Origin: a virus
Reading direction: 5' to 3' (one strand)
DNA: 13,232 nucleotides
UHGV virus genome: UHGV-0297100
Every line of letters begins with the position of its first letter. Positions within the stretch are counted from its first letter, which is position 1. The position numbers and the translations under genes are program-made. Under the pieces are notes generated by a model, which was given only the letters and a program-made list of their open reading frames with translations, ran no database searches and was not told the origin of the DNA. Below are positions 1,522 to 4,457 of the stretch, piece by piece.

Positions 1522-2021
1522 TGCTGACCCCACAAACAGATTTCACGCTCAATCTCACGACGAGTCATGAGACCTTTCCATTGCTTACCGCCAGCATATG
1601 TCCAGCGACGTAGCTGATCACATGCGCCTTTGATATCGCCCTGGTTTATTTTGCGAAGAAGCGTCGATGTTCTGAAATTGCCAGCACCCACGTTGTAAAC
1701 GAATGAGTAAAGAGCGCCGCGCATTGTTTCCGGTATATCGACTTTGATGTACGGGTTAATTTGTCTGGCGACCGTGGCAAGGTCTTTATTCAGGAGAGCT
1801 TTGCATTCTGCTTCGGTATACGTTTTACCGAGCATGATGTCTTTTCCGGTGTGTCCGTGACATACAGTCCATACACCAACAATATCTTTGTATGGTATGT
1901 AGCTGACACCTTCCAGACCATCGTTACCACTTGGTCCAGTGATTAACACAGATGCTATAGCAATAGCCCCGCCACTTATCGCCGCTATTACGCTATTTCG
2001 TAGTGCCGGTGACATTGCCAT
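1518..2021 (-). CDS. R: Phage endolysin (lysozyme), phage-21-type with an N-terminal signal-anchor-release (SAR) segment
   Basis: N-terminal weakly hydrophobic Gly/Ala-rich segment [17 protein letters not shown] followed by a lysozyme-like domain ([25 protein letters not shown]...). It sits between the holin and Rz and overlaps the holin 3' end. The exact start (M1 or M3) is unresolved. Confidence 0.9.
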
Positions 2022-2196
2022 TCAATCTGTCCTCGCGCTCTTTGCGCTTGTAGTACCAGTTGATGCCAAATGTGCCGACAGTACAAAGAATACCAATGAT
2101 GACAGCCCAGTCATTCAGGGAGAGAATGCCACCCATCGCAGTCAGTCCTCCGAAGCTGTAACTGAACCATTCTCTGATTTTGTCCATACGGTACAT
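1993..2196 (-). CDS. S: Class II holin (two transmembrane segments) with a dual-start motif
   Basis: 67 aa with two hydrophobic segments and a charged C-terminus ([10 protein letters not shown]), immediately upstream of and overlapping the endolysin. The N-terminus MYRMDK has two in-frame Met codons separated by a basic residue, like lambda S107/S105. Confidence 0.8.
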
Positions 2197-2687
2197 GCTC
2201 TACCCCTTCATTGAGGGGATTTGCTCTATTTAATTAGGAATAAGGTCGATTACTGATAGAACAAATCCAGGCTACTGTGTTTAGTAATCAGATTTGTTCG
2301 TGACCGATATGCACGGGCAAAACGGCAGGAGGTTGTTAGCGCAACCTCTTGCTACCCGCTTTCACGAAGGTCATGTGTAGAAGGCCGCAGCGTAACTATC
2401 ACCGATGAATTCATGATAGCCAGTGGCTACGGCTCAGTTTGGATTGTGGCGACCGGTGCTGATCTCCGGTTTGCTGCAACTGCCTACAGCGGGCTACGTG
2501 GCCACACCGAATCCAGCGAAAGATTCTTGCCCTTACACATCAGCCTGTGCATTCACCACAACGATAAGAGCACTGCGCGGCACCTTTCACCAATTCCGCG
2601 AGGTCTGCGGGTTCAATGCTCTTACCTGTTGTGCAAATAAAAAAGCCACCGTTGCAACTTAAGAGTCACTAACGGCAGCTTACATCT

Positions 2688-3200
2688 TTAAACGGTATGA
2701 TATTTCATTCTGGCGGCCTCAAAAGCCGCAGCGGCAAGTTCGGCAGTATCATGGTATCCAAGGTTAATACACTTTCCAGACGCATTAATTCTTGCTCTCC
2801 ATTTCCCGTACTTAGCATCCCAAGACACGCCACGGTATCCAGATTTATTATTCTTCTGAATTTTCCTGTTCTGCATATTTTCGGAATGAGTGACAAGACG
2901 AAGATTTGATATCCGGTTATCTGTTCTTACCCTGTTGATGTGATCAATAAAACCATCGGGCATGGTGCCATAAACAATCAACCATGCCAGTCTGTGAGCA
3001 GGGTATGCTTTACCATTAATCATAATCATTAAATACCCATCAGAATTTATTGATGAGCATTTCTTGAAAGCAAAACGAGAGTTCCATGTCAAAGTGGTCC
3101 TCTCTCTTCCCCGCCTCCATCTCCAGTGAAAGTCGCCTGATGATGGATTGTAATCAACAACAGAAAGCACCATTTCTGGCGTTAATTTTATTTCTTTCAT
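2688..3200 (-). CDS. HNH endonuclease with a C-terminal AP2-type DNA-binding domain (homing-endonuclease-like moron)
   Basis: HNH motif region HRLAWLIVYGTMPDGFIDHINRVRTDNRISNLRLVTHSENMQN, followed by an AP2-like segment SGYRGVSWDAKYGKWRARINASGKCINLGYHDTAELAAAAFEAA. RBS AAGG upstream of ATGAAAGAAATA. Appears AT-richer than its neighbours by eye. Confidence 0.8.
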   Translation of the reverse strand: MKEIKLTPEMVLSVVDYNPSSGDFHWRWRRGRERTTLTWNSRFAFKKCSSINSDGYLMIMINGKAYPAHRLAWLIVYGTMPDGFIDHINRVRTDNRISNLRLVTHSENMQNRKIQKNNKSGYRGVSWDAKYGKWRARINASGKCINLGYHDTAELAAAAFEAARMKYHTV

Positions 3201-3320
3201 CGCTTTACCTTAGGGATAGAGCCTGTTCGCGTAGATATGACAGCCAAGAGCGGAGCGATGTTTCCACCACCATATCTCAGGCCCATATCACTAAGACTCT
3301 TGTTTTGATTGCACGCGAAT

Positions 3321-3347
3321 GCAAAAAAGCCCACAGGAGGTGGGCTT
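3321..3347 (-). terminator. Rho-independent terminator, candidate tR' downstream of the late promoter
   Basis: Minus strand reads GCCCAC-CTCCT-GTGGGC (6 bp GC-rich stem) followed by TTTTTTGC. It lies about 50-70 nt downstream of the candidate pR' and upstream of the HNH gene. Confidence 0.6.
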
Positions 3348-3387
3348 GTGATGGTTGCTGAATGCAAAAGCAGCAGCATATGTGAAT

Positions 3388-3417
3388 ATTATGGCTAAAT
3401 GGCTAATTGCATGTCAA
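3388..3417 (-). promoter_or_regulatory. Candidate late promoter pR' overlapping the 3' end of Q
   Basis: Minus strand TTGACA (3417..3412), an 18-nt spacer, then CATAAT (3393..3388). The Q stop codon TAG (3397..3395) lies inside the spacer. The position just downstream of Q matches lambdoid pR'/qut architecture. Confidence 0.5.
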
Positions 3418-3913
3418 GGCTTTTAACAGCAACATGCTTAACTTTCTCAACACGTTTACGCATTTTGAAAGCATTTTGCATTGGTTGGTACAAAACAAAT
3501 AACGACGCTTTCAGGATGTCGTCAATTTCGTTTCTACAGGTTGCCAGTGAAGGTTTTCTCCATCCCTCGCCACCACGTCCACACATCTTGCGTGGCTTTG
3601 CAGTCGCGTGATAGTAGGATGCAATTGCTCGCTTAGATGAACCATGAGCGTAGTAGCTGAGGAGGATGCCAAAGGCTTTCTTGTCAATGTACATGACGGA
3701 ATCGACGACCTGAGAAATCAACATTCCATCATCATCATTACACATTGGCCTTGTCATAACTCTTCCCGGCTCTACGCTCTCCATGAACTTCGCTATTACG
3801 CTGCTCATGCGCTTTTCCAGACGACCTGAATAAACCCATGCGCCCCACAGCTCAAGCCAGCCATTCAGCCAATCGTGCTGTTCTTTGGTGAGGTTTAGCT
3901 CTCTTATGCTCAT
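3395..3913 (-). CDS. Q: Late-gene antiterminator Q (Phage_antitermQ family)
   Basis: Motifs WLELWGAWVYSG...TRPMCNDDDGMLISQVV match the conserved ERWGAW...SRP.C.DDD pattern of QuuD-type Q proteins. It directly follows ninH, and its start overlaps the ninH stop (ATGA). Confidence 0.8.
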   Translation of the reverse strand: MSIRELNLTKEQHDWLNGWLELWGAWVYSGRLEKRMSSVIAKFMESVEPGRVMTRPMCNDDDGMLISQVVDSVMYIDKKAFGILLSYYAHGSSKRAIASYYHATAKPRKMCGRGGEGWRKPSLATCRNEIDDILKASLFVLYQPMQNAFKMRKRVEKVKHVAVKSLDMQLAI

Positions 3914-4098: not shown

Positions 4099-4457
4099 AC
4101 GTTCTCCAGTTCGGTGATTTTTATTCCAAGCCGTCCGCCTGGTACTTTCACACCACGAATTACGCGAATGTCATCGAATTGCTCGTCGTCTTCCGCAAAT
4201 CCGGCGTGGATAAGAGAGTCGAGTAAACCTTTCAGGATGTTATCGAGGTCGCGGCGGCGGGAGTCTGGAACGTCTGCGATGACTTTGATGCGGAGCCGTG
4301 ATTTGGTGAAAATATCTAACTTGAGTTGGTGGATGATTTGCTGAACGTCTTTTCGGTATTTCTGGCCTTTATCGCTGATGTAGTATTGGCTTCCCCGTCT
4401 TCGCCAGTAGGTATTCACCGACGGCGGGTATGGAAGCACAAACTGATATTCGTTCAT
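4095..4457 (-). CDS. rusA: RusA-family Holliday junction resolvase
   Basis: 120 aa with MNEYQFVLPYPPSVNTYWRRRG...DVPDSRRRDLDNILKGLLDSL...RLGIKITE, matching RusA signature regions (PDRRRRDLDN). It sits where lambda has ninG. Confidence 0.9.
   Translation of the reverse strand: MNEYQFVLPYPPSVNTYWRRRGSQYYISDKGQKYRKDVQQIIHQLKLDIFTKSRLRIKVIADVPDSRRRDLDNILKGLLDSLIHAGFAEDDEQFDDIRVIRGVKVPGGRLGIKITELENV

Follow-up and report, generated by a model that had tools for sequence, protein, structure and literature searches.

An untranslated late leader between the HNH and holin genes

The virus genome UHGV-0297100 was analysed over a stretch of 13,232 nucleotides (the window), in which positions 2197-2687 form a gap of about 490 bp between two minus-strand genes. 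As the initial annotation had recognised, one flank is an HNH endonuclease gene (2688-3200, minus strand; PHROG 99, E = 1e-73) and the other a holin gene of 67 amino acids (1993-2196, minus strand; PHROG 20, E = 3.5e-25). The Q antiterminator gene of a lambdoid late region lies upstream (3395-3913, minus strand), and lysozyme and Rz/Rz1 follow the holin on the same strand. Judged by its sequence, the gap represents, on the minus strand, the 5′ untranslated leader of a Q-dependent lysis and late operon in a lambda-like prophage, and it holds a tRNA-like structured RNA together with several hairpins, one of which lies over the holin ribosome-binding site. Three options had been left open for this gap, namely a small RNA, a decayed gene or a regulatory structure, and that interpretation is borne out in part; it overlooked the lambda late leader that runs throughout, the phage-21-type tR′ at the upstream end, and the insertion of the HNH gene between the promoter pR′ and this terminator. 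By Blast, 247 phage records contain the stretch, as do 1,417 of 5,426 complete E. coli genomes; E. coli strains 317 and 04-00955 are 100% identical to it throughout the gap, and phage HK629 carries the same leader. All leader modules fold far better than shuffled sequences. The gap is neither spacer nor junk, and the observation that singled it out is real; most of it is known but poorly annotated sequence, comprising late leader, terminator and an sdi-like hairpin.

Consistent with the initial annotation, no minus-strand open reading frame (ORF) of at least 60 amino acids is present in the gap, the longest having 22, and the two plus-strand ORFs (2413-2640, 75 amino acids; 2423-2662, 79 amino acids) appear to be chance frames that match no Pfam or PHROG family. 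Both overlie conserved RNA helices of the opposite strand. Some phage records do call a hypothetical protein over homologous DNA, and in phage P1 the genes plp and upl stand opposite its copy, which might suggest that small proteins are encoded here by the plus-strand ORFs or by minus-strand micro-ORFs. We give this reading practically no weight, given that the ORFs are neither conserved nor matched in the protein family databases, that a minus-strand ORF of 20 amino acids begins at an ATG missing in most relatives, and that the variation tracks base-pairing rather than codons. The absence of tRNAs, previously judged by eye, was confirmed by ARAGORN, which gives 0 tRNAs or tmRNAs in the whole window; relaxed ARAGORN settings return implausible calls only, and RF00005 has no match at E up to 10. 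An Rfam search of positions 1900-3500, a check that the initial annotation had proposed, yields only four matches at E up to 10, all of them at chance level. Neither a clear tRNA or protein match nor a lack of conservation, the findings that would have reduced the gap to an ordinary annotated feature or to spacer, was thus encountered.

Homology to lambda extends over lambda positions 44,781-45,185, from just past the U-tract of tR′ (TGCACAACAGGTAAGAGCA...) to the start codon of S. The proximal (last) 245 nucleotides are 93.9% identical to lambda, and the proximal core recurs in diverged form (67-80%) in P22, ES18 and g341c. The lambda late leader shares with the window the base of a hairpin designated HpII, the hairpins HpIV and H2, the segments numbered 2 to 4 and the sdi hairpin, all described below, whereas lambda has its own Q, qut and tR′, another HpII apex, and an S-type holin instead of the 67-residue class II type found here.

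The phage-21-type late terminator (tR′/t21) occupies positions 2635-2682 of the minus strand as a 17-bp hairpin followed by UUUUUUAUUU (−20.2 kcal/mol, z = −4.93). It is identical to the terminator of phage 21 over AAGCUGCC..GGUGGCUUUUUU, where the phage 21 record annotates it with literature references, identical also to the HK75 terminator, and invariant across all five aligned phages. Its 5′ end contains TAAGCT, and TAAGCT(G) is annotated in the phage 21 record as a sigma-dependent pause element. The promoter pR′ overlaps the end of Q on the minus strand and is near consensus (11/12 match), with a −35 element TTGACA ending at 3417, an 18-nucleotide gap and a −10 element CATAAT at 3388-3393. 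Seven nucleotides after CATAAT, within 3370-3380 (minus strand), lies a pause-element-like TATGCT, which is the spacing of the annotated pause element of phage 21. The Q protein itself is 99% identical to that of HK75 and 85% identical to Q21.

The terminator begins a few bases past the −10 element of pR′ in HK75, CUS-3, Oslo and phage 21, all four of which lack the HNH gene and are otherwise co-linear in the flanks. In both the window and HK629 similarity stops right after CATAAT and returns at GTAAGCTGCC about 700 bp on. These alignments place an HNH cassette of about 700 bp (2683-3393, minus strand), acquired by insertion, between pR′ and the ancestral terminator; it carries, besides the HNH gene, its own terminator, a hairpin found by terminator scan at 3321-3347 (minus strand) that is now the first intrinsic terminator. 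In phage 21 the late terminator lies about 2 nucleotides downstream of the pR′ start and overlaps the pause element; the window terminator does not have this position, because the intervening cassette places it about 700 nucleotides from pR′. Both cassette junctions show a −10-like hexamer followed by GCTGC (TATGCTGC by pR′ and TAAGCTGC at the old terminator; TA[T/A]GCTGC). Given these pause-like hexamers at both junctions, the signals for Q loading look intact, and the old terminator would now be a second gate. The pattern looks like homing or recombination at a pause element in a way that kept Q loading possible.

The arrangement of pR′, Q-binding element, sigma-dependent pause element and terminator in phage 21 is among the closest described counterparts, with the same layout of −35 element, two-repeat element and pause element. 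The repeats between −35 and −10 differ, however (AATTAGCC/ATTTAGCC against ATTGAGCA/AATGAGCA), and the window adds the cassette with its second terminator and has TATGCT, not TAAGCT, as its pause-like hexamer.

A tRNA-like RNA family in the leader

Positions 2443-2562 of the minus strand (120 nucleotides) can be folded into a tRNA-like structured RNA, delineated from a covariation family and from the minimum free energy fold. Its closing stem P1 joins 2554-2562 (GUUGUGGUG) to 2443-2451 (CGCCACAAU) through nine pairs, two of them G.U. Within it, a P2 hairpin (2535-2550; AAU-GCACA-GGCUGA-UGUGU, with the loop GGCUGA at 2540-2545) is followed by a variable arm P3 (2471-2534) and by a P4 hairpin (2452-2470; ACCGG-AGAUCAGCA-CCGGU, with the loop AGAUCAGCA at 2457-2465), all on the minus strand. 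The two loops, both intact in the window, are predicted to form a loop-loop contact, GCUGA of P2 pairing with UCAGC of P4. The minimum free energy fold of the window sequence alone gives P1, P2 and P4. All structural hallmarks of the family are present, namely a P1 stem of 7 bp or more set directly against P4, the AAU junction, P2, P4 and the loop-loop pairing, and the element lies on the late (minus) strand between the Q and holin genes, which is the context expected of the family.

The family was found through a 26-nucleotide exact match to phage P1, about 320 nucleotides downstream of its trnA-trnT genes, and then by pattern scanning. An earlier scan with a 14-mer had given only chance matches in unrelated phyla, and longer patterns were used thereafter. 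The pattern scan recovered at least 120 viral contigs and 63 unique members, from which we built an alignment (A5) and a covariance model (R1). The window element scores 70.2 bits against R1, a value that is not independent because the window sequence was in the seed. Members share the closing stem, the AAU junction (57/63), a GCGCA-GGCUGA-UGCGC hairpin, a variable arm of about 20-190 nucleotides, and a second hairpin, GCCGG-AGWUCAGCA-CCGGC with a 9-nucleotide loop, that abuts the 3′ strand of the closing stem. Across the 63 unique members, 95.8% of the alignment cells are paired. The covariation score is 0.350, compared to 0.115 in shuffled alignments (0 of 500 reach 0.350) and at most 0.112 when partners are slid. 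All nine pairs of the closing stem change on both sides, as in column pair 10-123 (GC 35, AU 12, UA 9, CG 6), and pair 100-116 of P4 covaries as well (CG 45, UA 11).

Because the original pattern fixed both loops, members with a GGCCGA first loop were scanned for separately. The second loop reads UCGGC in 9 of the 10 genuine members of this kind, three of which also have an altered second stem, and this covariation indicates that the two loops pair, as the D and T loops of tRNA touch. The middle of the element, P3, is unconstrained in both sequence and length, and a search within the window for antisense targets of P3 returned only three 9-mers where 5.4 were expected.

Members of the family keep company with tRNA genes. 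All 129 tRNAs located within 1 kb of members, among the matches listed, are on the strand of the element, and in several tRNA arrays it sits 15-18 nucleotides from the next tRNA. By blastn, related sequence occurs in 400 phage records from Escherichia, Salmonella, Klebsiella, Pseudomonas, Burkholderia, Aeromonas, Xanthomonas and others, where it is annotated as nothing or as a hypothetical protein and never as RNA; some partial matches correspond to ordinary tRNA regions of large Salmonella phages and were not counted as members. In all three records inspected the element sits in a long non-coding gap, which directly precedes the holin genes in Pseudomonas phage D3 and the terminase genes in an Aeromonas phage, and which measures 840 nucleotides in Burkholderia phage phi644-2. 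Phage P1 has a second, weaker copy (83.8 and 24.5 bits for the two). Model R1 finds no match in lambda, HK75, P22 or T4; lambda retains only a decayed remnant (GAAU..ACCGGAAGCAGAACCGG).

No covariance model of Rfam 15, including C4, YrlA, tmRNA and STnc100, matches the window element, the copy of phage P1 or five other members, and the family was found neither in Rfam 15 nor in the annotation of any matched record. On this comparative sequence evidence, 2443-2562 is an intact member of a widespread and strongly supported tRNA-like RNA family, which lends support, in an unexpected form, to the small RNA that had been among the initial options.

Several small structured phage RNAs invite comparison, including the species 1 and 2 RNAs of T4, M3 of phi80, C4 of P1 and P7, and CI of P4, which likewise have tRNA-like ends and are found near tRNA genes or are RNase P substrates. 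RNase P substrates among small phage RNAs have been listed (PMC11143913). T4 rnaC and rnaD differ from the element in sequence and architecture, the Rfam C4 family has no match, and processing of the family described here is only proposed; we considered T4 rnaC/rnaD, Rfam C4, YrlA and tmRNA as possible identities of the element, and none is the same.

Upstream, the 3′ strand of hairpin HpII (2557-2634, minus strand) overlaps the closing stem of the element. HpII has the base GCACAAC-AGG-UAAGAGCA / UGCUCUUA-UCG-UUGUG and a variable apex (−34.8 kcal/mol, z = −4.41). Lambda, HK75, CUS-3 and phage P1, in the last of which it directly follows tRNA-Thr, have this base in common and differ in their apices, and more than 120 viral contigs carry it with at least 62 different apices, and T-arm-like GGTTCGAATCC motifs occur in some of these. 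Covariation is seen in the two free base pairs of HpII (AU 71, GC 10, GU 11; CG 84, UA 7). HpII is followed almost always by [G/C/A]TGAA[T/G], with which the tRNA-like element or its relic begins, and may either be an undescribed RNA module in its own right or belong to the same RNA.

The place held by HpII and the element is one where tRNAs are found in related phages, as the initial annotation had supposed. The 46 leaders with a phage-21-type terminator sort into length classes according to what lies between the terminator and the proximal leader. The commonest class, which is also the arrangement of phage 21, holds tRNA-Asn and tRNA-Thr (about 239 nucleotides); the others are the window type (276 nucleotides), the HK75 type (287 nucleotides, with a T-arm and acceptor remnant, or pseudo-tRNA), the CUS-3 type (374 nucleotides) and the lambda type (241 nucleotides). 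The HK75 pseudo-tRNA is called as tRNA-Arg by relaxed ARAGORN and has a weak match to the tmRNA/tRNA clan of Rfam (E = 0.027). The Asn and Thr tRNAs occupy the slot in phage 21, P22-like phages and BTP1, and in BTP1 lysogens both are highly expressed, with the lytic operon beginning directly after them (PMC7067206). The element resembles these late-leader tRNA cassettes, including that of phage P1, in slot, strand and the presence of a 7-bp stem abutting a 5-bp hairpin. Compared to true tRNAs, however, it lacks an anticodon arm of fixed size, its T-like loop has 9 nucleotides of other sequence, and the contact between D and T loops is replaced by five Watson-Crick pairs.

Mosaic junctions coincide exactly with module borders, and the annotators of CUS-3 labelled the flanks of the slot as boundary sequences bsq3 and bsq4. 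Together with the HK75 pseudo-tRNA and the degenerate lambda copy, these marks could mean that the middle of the gap consists of decayed tRNA genes, kept only because they lie between conserved recombination linkers. We consider this very unlikely, as the window element retains all conserved stems, both loops and the junction, and the family occurs in distant hosts with compensatory changes in every helix. Nor is there significant similarity to Asn or Thr tRNAs: decayed copies of these were rejected after local alignment to the Oslo tRNAs gave scores reached by 103 and 214 of 500 shuffles. The suggestion of a decayed gene is thus mostly wrong for the window; lambda and HK75 do carry decayed or pseudo versions. 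In the CUS-3-type allele we also observed two adjacent partial matches to the model, of 34 and 32 bits (CUS-3 locus 1736-1964, and six other loci), which suggests two tandem or rearranged copies of the element.

The proximal leader and the holin start region

Downstream of the element, the proximal leader (2197-2435) begins with HpIV (2383-2435, minus strand), an interrupted hairpin of 18 bp (−25.1 kcal/mol, z = −4.40) that is conserved in the window, lambda, HK75, CUS-3, Oslo and phage 21. Its homologue in lambda includes the EcoRI site at 44,972, and in tRNA-bearing phages HpIV directly follows the 3′ end of tRNA-Thr. The sequence after the hairpin is UUCUUUUUUU in phage 21, UUUUAC in lambda and only UUCUAC in the window. 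In phage 21 (locus 900-1018), HpIV stands between tRNA-Thr and UUCUUUUUUU, and the core formed by H2 and H3 is wholly missing; in that phage HpIV may serve to terminate the tRNA cassette.

The initial annotation had described a GAGGTTG/CAACCTC hairpin at about 2321-2345. This hairpin is real and larger than described: H2a is a 12-bp stem at 2324-2353 (minus strand) whose 5′ arm is AGGAGG-like, whose 3′ arm includes CCUCC and whose loop is CGCUAA; GUUUUG follows it, and it is enclosed by the outer helix H2b (GCGGGU/GCCCGU) within an extended hairpin, H2, of 47 nucleotides at 2313-2359 (minus strand; −23.0 kcal/mol, z = −4.15). Covariation in the proximal leader was evaluated over 110 unique leaders, which fall into four types. 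Between those of lambda type and those of P22 type, H2b covaries (CG/UA, GU/AU, UG/CG), and it fits the sense strand only, with G.U pairs in 84, 84 and 23 sequences and A.C never. H2a shows compensatory changes as well (CG/UA and GC/AU/UA), together with a mismatch that shifts its position and is of the A.C type in 125 cases, compared to a single G.U. The 3′ arm hardly varies. The 6-nucleotide loop of H2a is also found inverted in some lineages (CGTCAA against TTGACG), and these features of H2a are not accounted for by any single explanation.

The mismatch pattern could point to an antisense small RNA, transcribed from the plus strand upstream of the holin and having the 2324-2353 hairpin as a structural element, given that 69 of the 110 leaders are fully paired in H2a on the antisense strand. 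There is precedent in the Pas small RNAs (PasA and PasC) of Stx-type prophages, which also lie immediately upstream of the holin-lysozyme operon; PasA is an Hfq-bound small RNA encoded on the opposite strand between the sialate esterase and holin genes (PMC8550237 table S6; 2026 bioRxiv preprint). The Pas RNAs differ from the window RNA in being on the opposite strand, depending on Hfq and having their own terminator. We found no plus-strand promoter-like site in the gap and no U-tract after the antisense hairpin, and the probe sequences of PasA and PasC do not occur in the window even when 3 mismatches are allowed. For 2190-2445 the sense RNA has a folding z of −5.49, compared to −2.43 for its antisense, H2b fits the sense strand, and the asymmetry between A.C and G.U is largely expected because only the G-rich arm of H2a varies. 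For these reasons we rejected the antisense reading of H2a, and the existence of such an RNA at this locus is highly improbable.

Four short segments of the minus strand between 2217 and 2368 can pair in alternative ways: segment 1 (UUCGUGA, 2362-2368), segment 2 (UCACGAACAAAUC, 2291-2303), segment 3 (GGAUUUGUUC, 2259-2268) and segment 4 (GAGCAAAUCC, 2217-2226). UUCGUG can pair with CACGAA, and GGAUUUGUUC with either the upstream GAACAAAUC or the downstream GAGCAAAUCC. The pairings are mutually exclusive, such that 1:2 excludes 2:3 and 2:3 excludes 3:4. RNAalifold, applied to the 110 leaders, selects 1:2 together with 3:4, and all four leader types retain the 10-bp 3:4 helix even though the intervening 28-32 nucleotides have diverged. 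The energies of the two states are −55.3 and −53.7 kcal/mol in the window, 1.6 apart, and only 0.3 apart in lambda. Segments fixed by the search patterns carry no information on their own conservation, which makes the invariance of segments 1 and 3 uninformative. An H-type pseudoknot, GAUUACU/AGUAAUC, was also considered and rejected, since it is not kept in P22-type leaders.

The spacer between segments 3 and 4 (2227-2258) is nearly free of G, with 0-2 G in all four leader types despite its diverged sequence; it could be a Rho-loading site or a ribosome stand-by site.

The 3:4 pairing overlaps a hairpin over the ribosome-binding site (RBS) of the holin gene, to which the last two C's of segment 4 belong. 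These alternative pairings suggest that the leader may govern access to the holin start region. The RBS hairpin is sdi-like (CCCCU-CAAUGA-AGGGG, 2203-2218, minus strand) and is present exactly as the initial annotation had placed it. It is kept before holins of the lambda S type, of class II and of two other types, in compensatory forms (CCCC/GGGG, CCUCAC/GUGAGG and CCUCC/GGAGG), and alignment pair 167-180 reads CG in 84 leaders, UA in 21 and UG in 5. Every leader type with the hairpin has two closely spaced start codons after it. In the window these are read from the sequence as AUG-UAC-CGU-AUG (M-Y-R-M; 2185-2196, minus strand), which fits the lambda-type arrangement of a hairpin over the RBS and two in-frame starts 2-3 codons apart with a basic residue between them. 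The idea of a structure that controls holin translation thus finds support at the sequence level, in the retention of the RBS hairpin before unrelated holin types and in the dual starts.

The counterparts of M-Y-R-M are M-K-M in lambda and M-K-S-M in phage 21, and these are annotated as holin/antiholin dual starts. By this analogy the window would have a dual-start-like motif from which a holin/antiholin pair could be made, although its holin family differs from that of phage 21 (BLASTP against S21, only E = 0.27). Compared with lambda sdi, the proposed link between the hairpin and the upstream segments 3 and 4 is new.

The leader as a proposed chain of RNA modules

The explanation that we favour, at a probability of roughly 70%, is that this late leader works as a chain of RNA modules that includes a slot for a stable tRNA-like RNA. 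Transcription of the late (lysis and morphogenesis) operon would start on the minus strand at pR′, at about 3381-3417. The terminator at 2635-2682, which in phage 21 ends pR′ transcription by any RNA polymerase that Q has not modified, would act here as a second gate after that at 3321-3347. HpII and the tRNA-like element, in a slot for stable RNA, occupy exactly the place taken in relatives by tRNA-Asn and tRNA-Thr. The element imitates a tRNA through its closing stem stacked directly on a T-arm-like 5-bp hairpin, a D-arm-like hairpin, and a Watson-Crick loop-loop contact in place of that between D and T loops, and it might be excised by tRNA-processing enzymes (RNase P on the 5′ side, and trimming on the 3′ side) to yield a stable tRNA-mimicking RNA, a step that would at the same time separate the late mRNA from the leader 5′ of it. 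The two strong proximal hairpins, with their weak U-tracts, are probably weak back-up terminators or stabilisers that act on polymerase not modified by Q. Lastly, the alternative pairings may connect the upstream segments to the RBS hairpin at 2203-2218, which, by analogy to lambda sdi, would set the choice of ribosomes between the two starts, and with it the holin/antiholin ratio and the timing of lysis.

Another possibility is that the leader acts in cis only, with its hairpins and the tRNA-like element being ballast, back-up terminators or processing sites for the late mRNA, and with no independent RNA product. In line with this, the position is always that of a leader ahead of lysis or terminase genes, HpIV and H2a of lambda are followed by short U-tracts and HpIV of phage 21 by a long one, and P3 is unconstrained. 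Luk and Szybalski reportedly described tandem terminators downstream of lambda tR′ in 1983. Against this, polymerase modified by Q ignores terminators anyway, and the strict conservation of the loop-loop contact and junction exceeds what a spacer or terminator needs. The element also occurs within pure tRNA arrays, where the tRNAs already provide processing sites and there is no leader to gate, which argues against a purely cis-acting role; on balance we regard such a role as unlikely.

Beyond the chain of modules itself, the 120-nucleotide element could be the gene for a trans-acting tRNA mimic, expressed by temperate phages of many Proteobacteria from their late leaders or tRNA arrays, with a constant scaffold that tRNA-handling enzymes would recognise and with the hypervariable arm as a specificity module (for example a decoy for tRNA-targeting defence nucleases, or a guide). 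HpII, which usually precedes the element, may then be part of the same unit. We put this forward tentatively, as a possibility more doubtful than probable.

Several points weigh against our favoured explanation. The proximal leader is about 97% identical among lambda-type phages, and the synonymous sites of the adjacent S gene are 98-99% identical, so that identity alone proves no constraint; we dropped ultra-conservation as a functional argument on this ground, and the case for function is built instead on covariation, on the stability of the folds and on recurrence in distant phages. H2a is mismatched in the sense RNA of 105 of the 110 unique leaders, and the switch model relies in part on segments that the search pattern fixed. 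The element is dispensable, given that the lambda copy has decayed and that only about 16 of 100 lambda/P22-type leaders carry one. Its tRNA-like 3′ tail is not universal, a discriminator A being present in 38/63 members, followed by ACC in about 13/63, and the window having AUCC. Both cleavage by RNase P and stability are things that we infer from shape and neighbourhood alone. In addition, the element lies behind two strong terminators, and expression in a lysogen would therefore depend on read-through.

The interval between the late antiterminator and the lysis genes, several hundred bases long, has been treated as blank even in lambda, P1, P22-like phages and D3, which are among the best-studied phages. 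If the element yields a true RNA product, an unannotated family of RNA genes would be added to hundreds of phage and prophage genomes, and the lambdoid tRNA slot would appear to be a general expression site for stable RNAs. For the anatomy of the leader, the window provides a case in which a homing-type HNH cassette split pR′ from its terminator while apparently sparing the upstream Q-binding repeats and the pause-like element. The link between the upstream segments and the RBS hairpin, in turn, offers a directly testable handle on lysis timing.

A true RNA product would also explain the hypothetical proteins called over the element, including the opposite-strand plp and upl of phage P1. In this genome (NC_005856, 69,500-70,200), plp ("putative lipoprotein") and upl ("unknown") lie opposite HpII and both copies of the element, downstream of trnA-trnT, and may be mis-annotations over RNA genes. 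In a P1-like contig, we also observed an STnc100-like match of 38.4 bits, which is below the gathering score, at 4285-4405 in the same tRNA array as the element.

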